Shown: piece after piece, positions 7,218 through 17,973 of the stretch | Layout of the letters: every line of letters begins with the position of its first letter | Numbering within the stretch: position 1 is the stretch's first letter | Sequence record: NC_005859.1 | Direction: 5' to 3' (one strand) | DNA from: Escherichia phage T5 | Length of the DNA: 64,000 bases | The notes under the pieces: model-generated | The model's database searches: none | Seen by the model: the letters and a program-made list of their open reading frames with translations, nothing else | Told to the model about the DNA's origin: nothing | Program-made: the position numbers and the translations under genes

Positions 7218-7526
7218 ATGAGCGAACAGGTAAATCAAAACTATGAAGGACACGTTGATGACCAGTCCATCATACTTTGGGAGAAGGAGGGGGAACAAGT
7301 AAGATTAACAGTATCTGAATTTCGTGGGAATCTATACATGGGTATTCGTTACTGGCTTCTTGATATTAATGATGAATGGTTTCCAACGAAATCTGGCTTC
7401 TCTTTTCCTTACACCCTAGAAACAACATCACAGCTTTTCTATGCGTTTACACAGATTCTTAGCGAATCTGAGGTTTTACATGAAGTACAGAAACGAGCTG
7501 AAGAACTCAAAGCCAAGAATGCCTAG
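7218..7526 (+). CDS. hypothetical protein
   Basis: 102-aa ORF. Confidence 0.55.
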   Translation: MSEQVNQNYEGHVDDQSIILWEKEGEQVRLTVSEFRGNLYMGIRYWLLDINDEWFPTKSGFSFPYTLETTSQLFYAFTQILSESEVLHEVQKRAEELKAKNA

Positions 7527-7540
7527 TTCTTGGCTTTTTC
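7511..7540 (+). terminator. rho-independent terminator
   Basis: gccaagaa-tgcctag-ttcttggc hairpin overlapping stop codon, then TTTTT. Confidence 0.65.
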
Positions 7541-7553
7541 TTTATAAATGTAT

Positions 7554-7582
7554 TTGCTTTCAACTCAGTTTTGTTATATAAT
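7554..7582 (+). promoter_or_regulatory. sigma70-type early promoter
   Basis: -35 TTGCTT, 17-bp spacer, -10 TATAAT, ATTTATATAAATT downstream. Confidence 0.6.
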
Positions 7583-7613
7583 ATTTATATAAATTAATGA
7601 GAGATATAAATAA

Positions 7614-8585
7614 ATGACTAATGTAAAAGAATTTATTAAACGCTGTCAAGAAGCATATTATCAAGGCATGTCTTTAATCTCTGATGAAGAATATGATCGC
7701 CTGGTAAAACGCTTCCCGTTAGAGGAAGAGATCGGGCCTAAGGGTGATATTCCACATCTATATCGTATGTATTCTTTACAGAAAGTTTACTATAACCGTG
7801 GTGATAAACCACCATTCAATCCTTTAGGTCAGGTGGAAACCGATAAGTTAGATGGTTGTGCAATTTCTCTGCTATATATTAACGGCGAATTTGTTCAAGC
7901 ATTAACCCGCGGTAATGGTATTCTGGGGAATGATGTCACAAGCAACGTAAGATTGCTGAACATTCCTAAAAAGATTTCCCAAAAAGTACCTACTCAAATC
8001 ACTGGTGAAGTTCTAATTACAAAAGAAGTAGAAAATAAACGTAACTTTGCCTCTGGTGCTATTAACCTCAAAGATAGCGATGATTTCGTACAACGTATCG
8101 GGGAAGGTGGTTTAATCTTCGTTGCATACGGTATCCAGTGTTCTGCTGAATCTGTAGGTATTACAGAAGCATATTTAAAAGATATGCTTTGGCTAGAGAA
8201 TGAGAACTTCTTAACAGTTGTTAATGTGCGTTCCTTCTTTAAATGGATTCCGACGGACGGTAAAGTTGTTCGTATTAATGACAACAACAAATTCTTCCGT
8301 GAAGGCTGGACTAATAAATTCCCTCGTGGAGCATTCGCTATTAAAGAGGATGAAGAAGGCGAGATTACAACTCTTACTAAAGTTGAATGGCAGGTAGGGG
8401 CTTCGGGTAAAGTAACTCCAGTTGGTTATTTTGAACCGGTAATTATTGATGATGCTACAATTGTTAAAGCAACTCTTAATAACGTTGATTATATTAACTC
8501 TCTCGATCTAGAGATCGGTTGCCAGATTCGAGTGATTCGTGCTGGTGGTGTAATCCCGTGCATAGTAGAGCGAGTATACGATTAA
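7614..8585 (+). CDS. NAD-dependent DNA ligase, N-terminal part (adenylation and OB domains)
   Basis: 323 aa; LigA-like N-terminus and KLDG adenylation-lysine motif. Confidence 0.8.
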   Translation: MTNVKEFIKRCQEAYYQGMSLISDEEYDRLVKRFPLEEEIGPKGDIPHLYRMYSLQKVYYNRGDKPPFNPLGQVETDKLDGCAISLLYINGEFVQALTRGNGILGNDVTSNVRLLNIPKKISQKVPTQITGEVLITKEVENKRNFASGAINLKDSDDFVQRIGEGGLIFVAYGIQCSAESVGITEAYLKDMLWLENENFLTVVNVRSFFKWIPTDGKVVRINDNNKFFREGWTNKFPRGAFAIKEDEEGEITTLTKVEWQVGASGKVTPVGYFEPVIIDDATIVKATLNNVDYINSLDLEIGCQIRVIRAGGVIPCIVERVYD

Positions 8586-8728
8586 TACATAACCCTTTGC
8601 TACCCATCTACCATATCGGAATTATAAAGTGGTTATTGACATTTTCGCCGCTTAGGTATATACTATTATCATTCAGTTGAGGGATAGAAAGTTATGGCGA
8701 GGGTAAGCAAAGTTAGTTAAAATTGTAG

Positions 8729-8757
8729 TTGCTAAATGCTTAAATACTTGCTATAAT
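8729..8757 (+). promoter_or_regulatory. sigma70-type promoter between ligase halves
   Basis: -35 TTGCTA, 17-bp spacer, extended -10 TGcTATAAT. Confidence 0.55.
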
Positions 8758-8787
8758 ATTTATATAAATTGATAAGGAAGAAATTTG

Positions 8788-9567
8788 ATGAAAATCGAAA
8801 TTCCAACACAATGTCCCTCTTGTGGTTCTAAGCTAGATCTTGTCAACGGACAATTATTCTGTCGTAATAAGTCCAACTGTCCAGCGCAATCAAGTAAGTT
8901 AATTGAGAACTTCTGTACAAAAATGAAGTTAAAGGGCTTTGGCCCGAAAACTATTGAGAAGCTGGAGCTGACGAAGATTTCAGAACTATTTTACCTAACC
9001 GAAGAAGATTTGGTTAGAGCCGTGGGTAGCAAGGTTGCCGCTAAGTTAATTAGCGAATTAAATACTAAAGTTCGCGGAGACATTGACTTTGGTTCAGTTC
9101 TCGGTTCTTTAGGAATCCCTCTAATTGGAGAGGTTGCAGCAAAGAAATTATCCCAAAATTGCACTAGCTTTCAAGATGTGAAGGCTGACGGCAAGGCTGG
9201 AGAAAACTATAAAGCCTGGCTAAATTCCCCACAAGGCAAGGATGTAATCGAATTACCGTGGAAATTCTCAAAGGGTATTAAGGGTGCTAAAGCTGAGGTC
9301 ATCATCACTGATGGTCTAGTAGCCCAGCCAAATGGAATCACGGTGTGTATTACCGGATCTTTGCAAGATTTTGCAAATCGAACGGATGCAACAAACTATT
9401 TAGAAGGTCTAGGATATACGGTTAAGAAATCCGTTACCAAAGACGTCAAATACCTAATCTGTGAGGATGAATCGAAGCGTTCTTCCTCATCTTATAAGAA
9501 AGCCGAAACGAATGGGATAGAAATCCTGTCGATTAAAGAACTATTGGAGAAAAATAATAATGTCTAA
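8788..9567 (+). CDS. NAD-dependent DNA ligase, C-terminal part (Zn finger, HhH, BRCT-like)
   Basis: Cys4 motif CPSCGS...CRNKSNCPAQ typical of LigA zinc finger; separate ORF about 200 bp after the N-terminal part. Confidence 0.75.
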   Translation: MKIEIPTQCPSCGSKLDLVNGQLFCRNKSNCPAQSSKLIENFCTKMKLKGFGPKTIEKLELTKISELFYLTEEDLVRAVGSKVAAKLISELNTKVRGDIDFGSVLGSLGIPLIGEVAAKKLSQNCTSFQDVKADGKAGENYKAWLNSPQGKDVIELPWKFSKGIKGAKAEVIITDGLVAQPNGITVCITGSLQDFANRTDATNYLEGLGYTVKKSVTKDVKYLICEDESKRSSSSYKKAETNGIEILSIKELLEKNNNV

Positions 9568-10327
9568 ACTGAACTGGAACGTAGAAGGTGTAACCGAGTC
9601 TCTGAAAGCAAAAGCCACTGCTCTGGGTGTTGATGTAATCTCTCAAGAACAAGTAGCTGCTATCGCTGCTGAACTGGCTGCTGAAACTGGCAAAGACGTT
9701 ACCGCTCGCTCTGTTGGCTCTAAGCTGCGTAAAGAAGGTTTCGAAGTACAGAAAGCTAACGAAGTACAGAAATCCCCGTGGACTCCTGAGCAGGAAGCTG
9801 AACTGGTTGATTTCCTGAACGCTCATGCTGGTCAGTATACTTATGCTGAAATCGCTGCTGCTGTAGCTGGTGGTCAATTTGGTGCTAAGCAGGTACAGGG
9901 TAAGATCCTGAGTCTGGAAATGACAGCATCTGTTAAGCCGACCGAAAAAGCTGCCGCTGTTCGTTCCTTCACTCCGGATGAAGAAACTGACTTTGTTAAT
10001 CAGGTTGTTGCTGGTGCTACTATTGAAGCTATCGCTGCTCACTTCGGTCGCAATATTAAGCAGATCCGTGGTAAAGCTCTGAGTCTGCTTCGTGAAGGTC
10101 GTATCGCGGCTATGCCGGTACAGGAAACTTCAAGTGCTAAAACTCGTGAAGATCTGCTAGAAGGTCTGGATCTGGTTAACATGACCGTTGCTGAGATCGC
10201 TGAGAAAACTGGTAAGTCTGAGCGTGGTGTTAAATCTATGCTGTCTCGTCGTGGTCTGGTTGCTAAGGACTATGATGGTGCCGCTAAGCGTGCTAAACTG
10301 GATGCAAAAGCTGCGGCTGCTGAATAA
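9560..10327 (+). CDS. hypothetical abundant protein with internal repeated HTH-like modules
   Basis: 255 aa; strongly optimised codon usage; repeated ~45-aa units (TPEQEAELVDF / TPDEETDFVNQ / MTVAEIAEKTGKSERGVKSML). Confidence 0.7.
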   Translation: MSKLNWNVEGVTESLKAKATALGVDVISQEQVAAIAAELAAETGKDVTARSVGSKLRKEGFEVQKANEVQKSPWTPEQEAELVDFLNAHAGQYTYAEIAAAVAGGQFGAKQVQGKILSLEMTASVKPTEKAAAVRSFTPDEETDFVNQVVAGATIEAIAAHFGRNIKQIRGKALSLLREGRIAAMPVQETSSAKTREDLLEGLDLVNMTVAEIAEKTGKSERGVKSMLSRRGLVAKDYDGAAKRAKLDAKAAAAE

Positions 10328-10358
10328 TCTGGTAAATTAAACCTAAGGGGAGGGGGCT

Positions 10359-11867
10359 ATGCTCCTTCCCCTTTTTGCATTTAGAAGGCACGAAAGCGTG
10401 CAAAGGAGAATGACCTTGTTTAACGTGCAAGCTGTAGTGTTGAAGATGCTTCTAGCTTCCGAACAGAAGCAAATAGCATTGGAAACATTCTCAAAACTGC
10501 ATAAAGATCATTTTAATGACGCTTTCTCCTCAATTTACCAAGCCGTCCAGAATTATTATAAAAAATATAACACAATGCCGTCCATTGACGCACTGATGCT
10601 TGAGGCTAATAGGAACGCCCGCCTTTCTCAAGCTCTAGTCGTTTTAGCTAACACTCAAATTCCAGAAGTTAGCATGGAACAGGCACTTGAAGTCCTAGAG
10701 GCCGAGTATACACAGGATTTATTCCTGAAGCTTCTAGAAACAGACGTGCTTCAAGATTTAACAATGCTGGATCAGGGAGAAATTCTTAACCGAGTTGCCT
10801 CCCTTCACTTAAAATTAGAAGAGAAAGTAACGAATACTGGAAAAGTATTCAACGCAGATAACATGCGTATTTTCCAGAGAGAAGAAGATACCAAACTGAA
10901 CTTAATCGCTCTTGGTATTTGTAATGAGTTCGACGCTCAAATTGGTTTAGCTCGCACAGAAACGTTACTGCTTGGTGGTTGGCGTGGTACTGGTAAATCC
11001 ATTATCTGTTCAAACATACAGGTTGGAGATATTGCTCCATACTTCTCAATTGAGATGAAAGAACATGAAGTATTTAGACGTAATCTAGCCATGTTAGCTG
11101 GTGTATCAGCACTAGCAATGCGAAATAATACTCTAGAAGGTGCAGCTCTGTTGAGATTAGCCAGAACTAGAGCTAGAATGTTTAACGGTGGTGAAGAGCT
11201 TTTCGATAACTTCGTTAAACAATACACAATGGCTAAGATGAGTGATTTCTACGATATGGAAAGTAAGCTAATAGAAGGATATGAGCTACATACTCCTATG
11301 ATTATTGTTTATGATCCTGAGCTGTCTATTACAACAGTTGACGTAGAATTAAATAAATTAGTTGCTAGATATGGGGATAAAGTTACAGTAGCTTTACTTG
11401 ACTATATTAACCAAACCCGACTTCCAGATTCTAAAACCATTGATATGTATGACTGGAAAGAACAGATGGTTGTTAGCTCGTCTTTCAAATCCATCTGCCA
11501 GAAACATAACGTGGCTGGTGTAGCTCCTTACCAGATTGATCAAGATGGTAGAACACGTATGTCAAAAGGGATTCTTGATTCCGCAGACATGGCTGCTAAT
11601 CTTAATGCTGCAAAAGCTGATAATGGTCAAGGTGCTATTATGTTTGACTTCGTTAAGACCCGTTCTTCTGATAGCGTGAAGTTTATGCCTAAAATGAACT
11701 GGGAAACCCTGCGGATGGATAACACTACCAACCTAGCAATGGAAGATATATCTCAAATGGAAGCTGAGTTCGTTATCCCTATTGAGAAGGATAAGCCGGC
11801 TCAATCTAAACGTGCTAAGAAAGACAAAGCTGAAAATTCAACAGGTGAACAGGCCAGCGATATATGA
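10359..11867 (+). CDS. DnaB-like replicative helicase
   Basis: Walker A GGWRGTGKS; RecA-like C-terminal half; exact start uncertain (10359 has ggagg RBS, alternatives 10410/10416). Confidence 0.75.
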   Translation: MLLPLFAFRRHESVQRRMTLFNVQAVVLKMLLASEQKQIALETFSKLHKDHFNDAFSSIYQAVQNYYKKYNTMPSIDALMLEANRNARLSQALVVLANTQIPEVSMEQALEVLEAEYTQDLFLKLLETDVLQDLTMLDQGEILNRVASLHLKLEEKVTNTGKVFNADNMRIFQREEDTKLNLIALGICNEFDAQIGLARTETLLLGGWRGTGKSIICSNIQVGDIAPYFSIEMKEHEVFRRNLAMLAGVSALAMRNNTLEGAALLRLARTRARMFNGGEELFDNFVKQYTMAKMSDFYDMESKLIEGYELHTPMIIVYDPELSITTVDVELNKLVARYGDKVTVALLDYINQTRLPDSKTIDMYDWKEQMVVSSSFKSICQKHNVAGVAPYQIDQDGRTRMSKGILDSADMAANLNAAKADNGQGAIMFDFVKTRSSDSVKFMPKMNWETLRMDNTTNLAMEDISQMEAEFVIPIEKDKPAQSKRAKKDKAENSTGEQASDI

Positions 11868-12397
11868 TAACACAGGAAAGGCTAAAAGAGTTATTTGATT
11901 ACTCCCCAGGAACTGGGGAGTTTACTAGAAAAGTATCTAGAGGTAATCAGAAAGCTGGTAGTATAGTAACCAGAAAAGACTCTAACGGTTATATAATTAT
12001 TGGTATAGATGGCAAGGATTACAAAGCCCATCGGATGGCTTTTCTATTTATGGAAAATACATTACCGGAAAAAGTAGACCATGTAAATAGAATACCCTTT
12101 GATAATAGGTGGTGTAATCTAAGAGATGCCACAGCCCAGGAAAATAGTAGAAATAAAACCGCATGTAGTAAGTCTGGATACTTGGGAGTTGCTTGGGATA
12201 TCGAAAAACAAAGATGGAGAGTTCAGGTAAGAGACTCTAATAGCACTCTTAAAAATGGTGGCAGATTTAAGTATGAGGAGCTAGAGCTAGCTGTAAATTC
12301 AGCAAATATACTAAGGACTAAGTTACATGGAGAACGTGCTGTTATAGAAATTTTTGATACATCTAATTATCCTTCACTGGAGGAGTTAAATTCATGA
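11864..12397 (+). CDS. HNH homing endonuclease with AP2-like domain
   Basis: 177 aa; AHRMAF...VDHVNRIPFDNRWCNLR..T..EN HNH motif; YLGVAWD...RWRVQV AP2-like; ATGA overlaps with both neighbours. Confidence 0.75.
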   Translation: MITQERLKELFDYSPGTGEFTRKVSRGNQKAGSIVTRKDSNGYIIIGIDGKDYKAHRMAFLFMENTLPEKVDHVNRIPFDNRWCNLRDATAQENSRNKTACSKSGYLGVAWDIEKQRWRVQVRDSNSTLKNGGRFKYEELELAVNSANILRTKLHGERAVIEIFDTSNYPSLEELNS

Positions 12398-13284
12398 GTC
12401 GAATAACAGAATTACTTGATCTTAAGGGAATTGAGTATAAAGATACTGGTGGAGATATTTTAATCTGTTGTCTCAATCCAGATCATGACGATAAACACCC
12501 AAGTTTGCGTATTGACCCTGAAACAGGTATTATGCACTGCTTGAGTTGTGGCTTCGGTAAAGGTATACCGAGCATTTACCATTATTTTAATGAGACTCAG
12601 TACCGACAGTCCCCAAGGCTATCGCAAGTACGTAAAAAGATTTCAGAGATTAGGAATGGATCAACGAATCTTGCAATTCCTGAATCTGCTTACCTTTTCG
12701 AAGGTGATTTCCGAGGTATAAGTTCTAAGACCTTGAAGAAATATTTTGCTTTCCAACACCAAGCAGACTGGGAAGGCAGAATTGTATTCCCAATCACAGA
12801 TGCTGTTGGACGCAATATCCTATTTTTGGGTCGTTCTATAAACAGTTCTGCCCCTCCTAAATACTTAGTAAAACCAAAACAAGTTTCACCACCAATTTTT
12901 CCTGTACGATATAATACTCCGGTTCTTATTCTAGTTGAAGGCATCTTTGATATGCTGAACCTAGAGGATAATGGTATAGACTATGCTTCTTGCTGCTTTG
13001 GTACACATCAGTTTACTTCGGATAACATTGCAGATAAGTTCAGTCCTTATATTATTGCCGGTGTAAAAGTTGTTGTTATCTTACTAGATAATGATGCTTC
13101 TGGTAATAAAGCTGCACAAGCATTGGCCAAGCTAATTCGTACAAAAACGCGTTTAACACCTGTAGTTGCTAACTTTCTTCTGCCTGAAGGTAAAGACCCG
13201 GGTGACTTAAATAAAGAAGAGATTGATACGTTAGCAAAACGTATTGAAATTTTAGTTGCTGAATCGCTTAAAGATTTGGTATAA
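12394..13284 (+). CDS. DNA primase (CHC2 zinc finger plus Toprim)
   Basis: C..NPDH...H..LSCGFGKG zinc finger; Toprim-like ILVEGIFD and LLDNDASG motifs. Confidence 0.8.
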   Translation: MSRITELLDLKGIEYKDTGGDILICCLNPDHDDKHPSLRIDPETGIMHCLSCGFGKGIPSIYHYFNETQYRQSPRLSQVRKKISEIRNGSTNLAIPESAYLFEGDFRGISSKTLKKYFAFQHQADWEGRIVFPITDAVGRNILFLGRSINSSAPPKYLVKPKQVSPPIFPVRYNTPVLILVEGIFDMLNLEDNGIDYASCCFGTHQFTSDNIADKFSPYIIAGVKVVVILLDNDASGNKAAQALAKLIRTKTRLTPVVANFLLPEGKDPGDLNKEEIDTLAKRIEILVAESLKDLV

Positions 13285-16404: not shown

Positions 16405-17753
16405 AGGTTGTTATATCTAATAAAGCCTATTTCAAGCCCGATGATGAACTTTGGGATTATTGTAGTAAGCAAACCACTTATCACATAGAGACAATGACTA
16501 GTAAATACCCTATTATGTATAAGAATAGTGGTGTTGTTGCCAAAGAGATTAAGTGGATTCCTATTACGCGTCTGGACTTATTAGATGCTAAAGGAATAAA
16601 ATACGAATTAGTCGATAAACGCACACTAGCACCGGTAGATATACCAAAACCTAAGTTCAAGCTGCGTGAAGAAGATCAGCTTCCAATATACGAAGAATGC
16701 GATGATACCTGTATTATTAATGGTAAGCCTGGGTTTGGTAAAACTATCCTAGCACTTGCACTTGCGTATAAATTTGGCCAGAAAACTTTAGTAATCTGTA
16801 CGAATACATCCATTCGTGAAATGTGGGCGGCAGAAGTTCGTAAATGGTTTGGGTTTGAACCAGGTATCATAGGTTCTGGGAAATACAATATTGATCCGCC
16901 AATTGTAGTCAGTAATATTCAAACAGTGAATAAACATGCGAATAATCTTTCTAAAGTATTCGGTACTGTTATAGTTGATGAAGTTCACCATTGTGTGGCT
17001 ACAACTTTCACTAACTTCCTAGAAATATCATGTGCTCGCTATAAAATTGGACTATCCGGTACACTAAAACGAAAAGACGGTTTACAAGTTATGTTCAAAG
17101 ATTTCTTTGGATATAAGATATTTAGCCCGCCGGTTAATAATACTGTTGCACCTACAATCCATAGGTACTCCGTGCCTGTTGAGCTATCAGGAAACCAAAA
17201 CGTACCGTGGGCATTACGTGCTAACGATGTGTATAATCATCCTGAATATCGAGAGACTATTATAAACCTAGCACATTTATATGTGAATATGGGACATAAA
17301 GTACTCATTGTAAGTGATAGAACAGAGTTAATCCAAACAATACTAGAAGCTCTTACACAGCGTGGTGTTACAACCTATGAAATTATAGGAGCAACCCACT
17401 TAGATGACCGATTAAAAATTCAGGAAGATATAGCAAAAGGCGGGCCGTGTGTGCTTGCAGCAGCTCAAAGCATCTTCTCTGAAGGTATTTCACTTAACGA
17501 GCTGTCTTGTTTAATAATGGGAAGCCTCATTAATAATGAATCTCTCATTGAACAGCTTGCAGGCCGTGTTCAACGTATTGTCGAGGGTAAACTCGACCCA
17601 ATCGTTGTAGATCTAATTATGAAAGGTGGCACTGGGTTAAGGCAGGCTTCTGGACGTATGGCAGTATATCGTAACAACGGGTGGAAAACTATTACTATGA
17701 CTCCGGAGAAAGCAGTTCAATTAGCTAAAATTGCATTTGGCAACAGCTCATAA
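16401..17753 (+). CDS. SF2 helicase (DEAD/DEAH-like), T5 D10-like
   Basis: 450 aa; Walker A GKPGFGKT; Walker B DEVHH; helicase C-terminal region. Confidence 0.8.
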   Translation: MKVVISNKAYFKPDDELWDYCSKQTTYHIETMTSKYPIMYKNSGVVAKEIKWIPITRLDLLDAKGIKYELVDKRTLAPVDIPKPKFKLREEDQLPIYEECDDTCIINGKPGFGKTILALALAYKFGQKTLVICTNTSIREMWAAEVRKWFGFEPGIIGSGKYNIDPPIVVSNIQTVNKHANNLSKVFGTVIVDEVHHCVATTFTNFLEISCARYKIGLSGTLKRKDGLQVMFKDFFGYKIFSPPVNNTVAPTIHRYSVPVELSGNQNVPWALRANDVYNHPEYRETIINLAHLYVNMGHKVLIVSDRTELIQTILEALTQRGVTTYEIIGATHLDDRLKIQEDIAKGGPCVLAAAQSIFSEGISLNELSCLIMGSLINNESLIEQLAGRVQRIVEGKLDPIVVDLIMKGGTGLRQASGRMAVYRNNGWKTITMTPEKAVQLAKIAFGNSS

Positions 17754-17765
17754 ATGATGTATAAT
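17737..17765 (+). promoter_or_regulatory. sigma70-type early promoter
   Basis: -35 TTGGCA, 17-bp spacer, -10 TATAAT, then ATATACATAAATTTGAGAGAG. Confidence 0.55.
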
Positions 17766-17836
17766 ATATACATAAATTTGAGAGAGAAAGTTTCGGATTG
17801 ATAAGAAAGTCCGAAGCAGAAAAATAAAAATTTTAG

Positions 17837-17866
17837 TTGCTAAATTCTCTCGAAATCTAGTATAAT
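17837..17866 (+). promoter_or_regulatory. sigma70-type early promoter (second of a tandem pair)
   Basis: -35 TTGCTA, ~18-bp spacer, -10 TATAAT, then ATATACATAAATTCGAGGAG; near-duplicate of the promoter 100 bp upstream. Confidence 0.55.
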
Positions 17867-17973
17867 ATATACATAAATTCGAGGAGAAAACAAAAATTAA
17901 ATTCTTCGATTATGAAAAGCTATACTTACTAGCTAGAGGAAATTCCGACCTAATTATTAAGCTATTCAAAAGA

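Follow-up and report, generated by a model that had tools for sequence, protein, structure and literature searches.

In the DNA of Escherichia phage T5, the parts of an NAD-dependent DNA ligase are found in two consecutive ORFs (positions 7614–9567 of the window, by which we mean the whole stretch of 64,000 nt analysed here). This locus raises the question of whether the enzyme is really made and used as two polypeptides, or whether the two halves act on their own, are rejoined after transcription, or are the remains of a broken gene. Positions 7400–9800 were 100% identical to the T5 record AY692264.1 by megablast, in which the two ORFs are annotated as ligA and ligB (T5p114 and T5p115; AAU05253 and AAU05254) with promoters P-K28b and P-K28a in the gap between them. 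In the independent T5 record AY587007 the second half is also annotated separately, as dnlj2. The two-gene NAD-dependent ligase of T5 is thus real but already known: the GenBank record of T5 shows the split together with the intervening promoters, and the subunits are named in hundreds of related genomes. A T5 helicase paper (PMC3632103) lists both subunits by accession. Our literature search found no paper on the heterodimeric ligase of T5 or of phage PR1, nor on P-K28a/b; the relevant papers just name both subunits, none treats the split mechanistically, and we came across no biochemistry of the T5 enzyme and no mapping of its transcripts. Locus, CDSs and promoter features are the same here as in AY692264, and the sole change is the start of ligB, which we place at ATG 8788 and not at TTG 8785. 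The features of the locus are as follows.

7509..7537, + strand: terminator-like hairpin with a 12-bp stem and a T run; lies after T5p113 and closes the upstream unit
7554..7582, + strand: putative ligA promoter, TTGCTT-17-TATAAT; annotated as 'putative promoter' in AY692264
7614..8585, + strand: ligA, 323 aa from an ATG; domain Ia, nucleotidyltransferase domain with KLDG, OB fold
8636..8664, + strand: core of P-K28b, TTGACA-17-TATACT, 11/12; annotated feature 8616–8690
8729..8757, + strand: core of P-K28a, TTGCTA-17-TATAAT with an extended -10 TG; annotated feature 8709–8783
8774..8780, + strand: Shine-Dalgarno sequence AAGGAAG, spaced 7 nt from the ATG of ligB
8788..9567, + strand: ligB, 259 aa when read from the conserved ATG (260 aa from the annotated start, TTG 8785); Cys4 zinc finger, HhH, BRCT
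9560..10327, + strand: T5p116, D5-like gene (DNA-binding or transcription factor); start codon (ATG) inside the 3' end of ligB
10345..10373, + strand: strong terminator-like hairpin with a 13-bp stem (8 G-C pairs) and a T run; ends the ligB–D5 unit

The first ORF has the catalytic domains of a LigA enzyme. Pfam matched it to the adenylation domain (PF01653, 2.2e-23) and to the OB fold (PF03120, 3.8e-22), which together with the ORF list bears out the sequence-only reading of an adenylation/OB half with a KLDG motif encoded as a 323-aa gene of its own. KLDG occupies LigA residues 78–81, aligns to K115–G118 of E. coli LigA and is invariant in 7 genera; K78 corresponds to the active-site lysine K115. 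The OB fold (residues 214–320) aligns to E. coli residues 284–390. At residues 14–30, the sequence AYYQGMSLISDEEYDRL aligns to the NMN-binding motif of LigA domain Ia (YY...D..YD), with Y15, Y27 and D28 unchanged throughout the family; the pairwise HMMER score of this short segment by itself was not significant. The NMN-binding residues of domain Ia confer NAD+ specificity.

The second ORF has the remaining domains. Its BRCT match in Pfam was clear (1.6e-8), and the HhH match (1.9e-5, 25.2 bits) fell just below the 27-bit cut-off. LigB residues 3–123 align to E. coli LigA 402–530 with all four zinc-finger cysteines in register, and residues 174–253 align to the E. coli BRCT domain (591–666). 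The earlier reading of a separate zinc-finger/HhH/BRCT gene therefore stands, and its length of 260 aa probably does not. The aligned start of ligB is ATG in four of the five other genera and TTG in DU_PP_V, and chain B of the crystallised orthologue described below starts with MKIQIPT; a product of 259 aa is therefore likely, with the true start at ATG 8788 rather than TTG 8785. The purine-rich Shine-Dalgarno block in front of this ATG is kept in relatives.

Comparison with the single-chain enzyme of E. coli (PDB 2OWO) locates the break precisely. Both enzymes have the domain order Ia, NTase, OB, Zn, HhH and BRCT, the KxDG lysine and the Cys4 zinc finger, whereas the T5 enzyme consists of two polypeptides cut in the OB–Zn linker. 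LigA residue 320 aligns to E. coli residue 390 and LigB residue 3 to residue 402, leaving only about six linker residues unaccounted for, so the break lies inside the short linker between the OB fold and the zinc finger. The claim that the ligase is encoded as two separate genes is thereby confirmed and made more exact. A gap of 202 nt with stop codons separates the two ORFs, which differ in frame and have a ribosome-binding site each. Sequence identity of the T5 halves to E. coli LigA is only about 25%, and they total 582 aa versus 671 aa, the NTase and HhH regions of T5 being shorter. In the LigA family all domains are on one polypeptide, which is not the case in T5; the other sequence features of the family are all present (KxDG NTase, domain Ia, OB, and Cys4/HhH/BRCT with HhH sub-threshold). 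With its domains on two ORFs, the T5 ligase is thus a two-subunit variant of the LigA family. It also has the characters of the PR1-type ligases of Demerecviridae, namely adjacent genes, a split between OB and Zn, and full-length similarity to the solved chains.

The same two-gene layout was found in 428 phage records at a query coverage of at least 80%, and the split point was the same in the 8 phages aligned. Lineages inspected, in all of which the split was present, were DT571/2 (Tequintavirus), rutana (Epseptimavirus), VAC51 (Sugarlandvirus), PSTCR5 (Priunavirus), DU_PP_V (Hongcheonvirus), Thalassa (Thalassavirus) and the unclassified Vibrio phage D375. Sequencing error is therefore excluded by these 428 records together with AY587007, and a single continuous ORF, which would have spoken against the split, was not seen. 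Every sampled genome with one ligase half also had the other. LigA-like sequences were present in 1193 phage records and LigB-like sequences in 930; the excess of LigA-like sequences comes from distant phages, mainly jumbo phages, with ligases at most about 32% identical. Ligases of jumbo phages (for example Pseudomonas phage phiHQ and Klebsiella phage N1M2) are also phage-encoded and NAD+-dependent, but they reach at most 32% identity to the LigA part and 27% to the LigB part of T5, compared with at least 39% within the Demerecviridae clade. LigB had 590 homologues in the database, of which the best 120 were all 190–263 aa long, none with an adenylation domain.

Selection has acted on both halves. 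Ratios of dN/dS (Nei-Gojobori) were 0.02–0.05 for ligA and 0.06–0.11 for ligB, indicating that both are under strong purifying selection. Moreover, amino-acid identities of LigA and LigB to their T5 counterparts matched at each depth of divergence (0.96/0.96, 0.73/0.73, 0.54/0.55 and 0.50/0.53). The halves are thus equally conserved and diverge in step, which is the opposite of the conservation of one half alone. Fission of the ligase would be ancient, predating divergence of the Demerecviridae lineages sampled.

Evidence that the two halves work together comes from an orthologue. PDB entries 9HU3 and 9I5I each contain a 339-aa 'DNA ligase (NAD(+))' as chain A and a 248-aa 'DNA ligase subunit B' as chain B, 52–54% identical to the T5 halves by Foldseek. 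Chain A matched T5 LigA residues 4–323 (8e-104) and chain B matched LigB residues 1–255 (3.8e-80). Their titles are 'PR1 phage heterodimeric DNA ligase in complex with 21-mer nicked DNA containing phage nick sequence' and '...(random sequence)', with release dates of 2026-01-14 for the phage nick sequence and 2026-02-18 for the random sequence. The PR1 ligase (Providencia, Priunavirus) is an orthologous two-chain enzyme that differs from that of T5 in genus and host; it has a solved structure, whereas the T5 counterpart is known here from sequence. Chain B is 100% identical to the protein of Providencia phage PSTCR5, a phage close to PR1 with a T5-like gene order, a gap of 192 bp and the same tandem promoters. 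From this orthologue we infer physical association of T5 LigA and LigB, and NAD+-dependent nick sealing by the T5 enzyme has indirect support in that the orthologue was solved on nicked DNA. The proposal that a split ligase implies assembly in trans gains its support in the same way. An AlphaFold model of an end-to-end LigA+LigB fusion built from 7 sequences was of low confidence (pLDDT 64.7, pTM 0.35), too low to inform on the interface or to carry any other structural claim.

Other explanations of the two ORFs can be weighed against these data. The halves might be partly independent, with LigB produced in excess by strong promoters of its own and acting alone in binding of nicks or DNA or in BRCT-mediated recruitment, or with LigA serving as a minimal ligase without LigB. 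Such independence would fit the two dedicated promoters of ligB, of which ligA has no equivalent, and the Vibrio phages in which as much as 1360 bp and three other genes intervene between ligA and ligB. However, the sampled genomes do not have one half without the other, the halves diverge at the same rate, and crystals of the orthologue contained the heterodimer on nicked DNA. In addition, removal of the zinc finger and HhH domains from LigA abolishes nick sealing and leaves self-adenylylation intact; we consider partial independence very unlikely. A broken gene, whether a pseudogene or an assembly error, has virtually no chance of being correct, given the low dN/dS in both halves and the recurrence of an identical architecture in the second T5 record and in hundreds of genomes sequenced independently.

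Rejoining of the two ORFs after transcription, by trans-splicing of a split intein, ribosomal bypassing or RNA splicing, has in its favour only that the halves are adjacent and collinear, and we give it next to no credence. The linker is exactly where LigA stops and LigB starts, which leaves no extra residues for intein fragments, and the absence of surplus sequence at this junction rules out split inteins. The gap of 202 nt changes frame and carries two promoters followed by a Shine-Dalgarno sequence and ATG of its own; different frames and separate initiation signals argue against bypassing. Whole genes lie in the gap of Vibrio phages, and the PDB entries contain two separate chains. An Rfam search of 7300–9900 with E up to 1 returned two chance matches, both outside the gap, and thus no intron or ribozyme. 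The gap had no endonuclease ORF and no intein sequence, and ORFs touching it were 37–53 aa long, none of them wholly within it. Rfam, the ORF list and the alignments therefore agree with the earlier observation that there is no intron-like structure or embedded endonuclease, and the check for protein splicing and bypassing that it called for comes out against both. Nor did we find support for a split caused by a mobile element: the Vibrio gaps contained ORFs that were DprA-like (phrog_768), phrog_7775 or unmatched, and no endonuclease was among them. Synthesis of the T5 ligase as two polypeptides that associate non-covalently on nicked DNA, with an ancient split, is thus the reading that we hold with high confidence.

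The gap itself carries two sigma-70 promoters, not one. The sequence-only reading had correctly picked out the consensus promoter TTGCTA-17-TGcTATAAT, which is P-K28a, and had missed the stronger P-K28b upstream. The raw number of promoter-like sites in 7300–9900 was not above that in shuffled sequences (5 versus 6.8) in this AT-rich region, and a scan of this kind is by itself no proof. Support for the promoters comes instead from the T5 record, which names P-K28a and P-K28b, and from cross-genus alignments of the gap, in which the promoter hexamers are invariant columns among otherwise diverged sequence. That P-K28a/b were established by experiment is suggested by their GenBank feature names, which fit a set of T5 promoters reportedly characterised by the Bujard laboratory in the 1980s.

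Positions of the two promoters relative to ligB are also fixed. The first promoter (11/12 in each case) was found 145–156 nt upstream of ligB in all six lineages scanned, that is T5 (about 150 nt), PSTCR5, DU_PP_V, Vibrio D375, VAC51 and Thalassa. The second lies 59 nt upstream of ligB in T5 and DU_PP_V and 58 nt upstream in PSTCR5 and Vibrio D375; in VAC51 it was seen in the alignment with a -35 below the scan threshold, and in Thalassa the scan did not pick it up. The gap shows 97% identity between T5 and rutana, against a synonymous divergence of 41% in ligA and 20% in ligB, which points to constraint on the gap. In Vibrio phages, extra genes (DprA-like phrog_768, phrog_7775 and unknowns) are located between the ligA stop codon and the promoter module, so the module travels with ligB and not with ligA. 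Since the fission, the module would have kept its fixed spacing to ligB.

The DprA-like gene (phrog_768, 2.2e-49) lies between ligA and ligB in Thalassa (L007 1140–2343) and upstream of ligA in DU_PP_V (L008 783–1346). Its presence on different sides of ligA indicates that the surroundings of ligA are a variable insertion site, and that the block of promoters, ligB and D5 is fixed. In the record of D375, an annotated 'hypothetical protein' of 43 aa (L006 2380–2511) overlaps the conserved tandem promoters ahead of ligB and was probably annotated in error.

The promoters head a larger unit. The ATG of T5p116 overlaps the end of ligB, suggesting that the two genes are co-transcribed and probably translationally coupled, and the order of ligB and the D5-like gene was the same in all relatives inspected. 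Equivalents of the hairpin after the D5-like gene were found in VAC51, PSTCR5, DU_PP_V and Vibrio D375; in Thalassa no terminator was called by the scan after this gene. The split, the promoter pair at its fixed distances (about 150 and 58 nt) and the terminator after D5 were each present in five or all six of the Demerecviridae lineages scanned. These data suggest a conserved unit of tandem promoters, ligB, D5-like gene and terminator, into which ligA may read from its own promoter. The promoters would then probably serve the D5-like gene as much as ligB. No terminator was predicted in the gap by the terminator scan; the only one nearby is that upstream of ligA (7509–7537), an equivalent of which also precedes the ligA block in VAC51. 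The proposed order is the ligA promoter (7554–7582), ligA, no terminator, P-K28b, P-K28a, ligB, the D5-like gene and the terminator at 10345–10373. LigB and the D5-like protein would be made from transcripts of up to three promoters, and LigA from those of one.

Several other observations were made around these promoters. A 19-nt box, TATAATATTTATATAAATT, with the -10 hexamer at its start, has the same sequence at the ligA promoter (7577–7595) and at P-K28a (8752–8770), and occurs with 2 mismatches at 17760–17778 and 17861–17879, where it marks a second pair of tandem promoters (17737–17765 and 17837–17866) about 100 bp apart. There were 7 matches in all against 0.19 expected, and the box looks like a shared signature of T5 early promoters and their initially transcribed regions. 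In T5, the putative leader RNA of P-K28b folds unusually well (-29.4 kcal/mol, z = -4.49, positions 8671–8772), with a long hairpin that pairs the region around 8690–8702 with the -10 region of P-K28a. This leader is identical in Salmonella phage rutana, and the fold is weaker in VAC51 (Sugarlandvirus) and absent in four other genera. RNAalifold gave no consensus pairs, so a structured leader or small RNA was rejected as a feature of the family and is kept as a curiosity of T5 and Epseptimavirus. An eight-codon mini-ORF behind P-K28b (ATGGCGAGGGTAAGCAAAGTTAGTTAA, from 8695) was likewise set aside, as it showed no conservation in PSTCR5 and DU_PP_V.

Downstream, the annotated start of the dnaB helicase gene (AY692264; 10359) falls in the loop of the terminator hairpin 10345–10373. 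The relatives of this helicase begin with M(Y/F/I)NVQAVVLK, which corresponds to T5 residues 20–29, and thus the T5 protein probably starts at ATG 10410 (MTLFNVQ...), 17 codons downstream. Within dnaB, at 11025, the window goes out of register with AY692264; the ORF has 502 aa in the window versus 507 aa as annotated, which fits an indel of 15 nt. Identity to AY692264 does not extend to the whole window, which may derive from another T5 record or isolate.

According to our working model, the two polypeptides divide the work of a single-chain ligase. LigA, with its NMN-binding domain Ia, its adenylyltransferase domain with active-site K78 of KLDG and its OB fold, would perform the chemistry, and LigB, with its zinc finger, HhH DNA-binding domain and BRCT, would act as a nick-binding clamp. 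Together they would close around nicked DNA in the manner of the single-chain enzyme. The roles given here to LigA and LigB are drawn from the orthologous structure and from the domain biochemistry of LigA.

Virion DNA of T5-like phages carries site-specific single-strand nicks, and the 'phage nick sequence' used as substrate by the PDB depositors indicates that a link between ligase and nicks is already being examined. Two further observations bear on the nick biology in the PDB titles. Between the helicase and primase genes, T5p118 is annotated as an ORF that has an HNH endonuclease motif (AY692264 61574–62107; window 11879–12412, nominal in view of the 15-nt indel), and AY692264 also annotates a 'major DNA single-chain interruption' at record positions 70533–70534. 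Fission and tandem promoters might set the levels of LigB and D5 apart from that of LigA, and the two-piece enzyme might be tuned to a T5-type genome, for example in sparing or handling the nicks of the virion. We regard this as unlikely, and a link among two-piece design, subunit dosage and site-specific nicks of the T5 type is speculative.

The split, the promoters and the heterodimer of the orthologue are already recorded, and thus the finding in T5 opens no new question. What is added here is small: a second promoter, a conserved ligB–D5 transcription unit and two corrections of start codons. The tandem promoters at a position fixed across the family, the unit from promoters through ligB and D5 to the terminator, and the corrected starts could help annotation of T5 and design of expression studies. 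A replicative ligase divided into a catalytic and a DNA-clamping subunit is an unusual case in which nature has tried out domain fission, and it may bear on how T5-like phages handle their nicked genomes.
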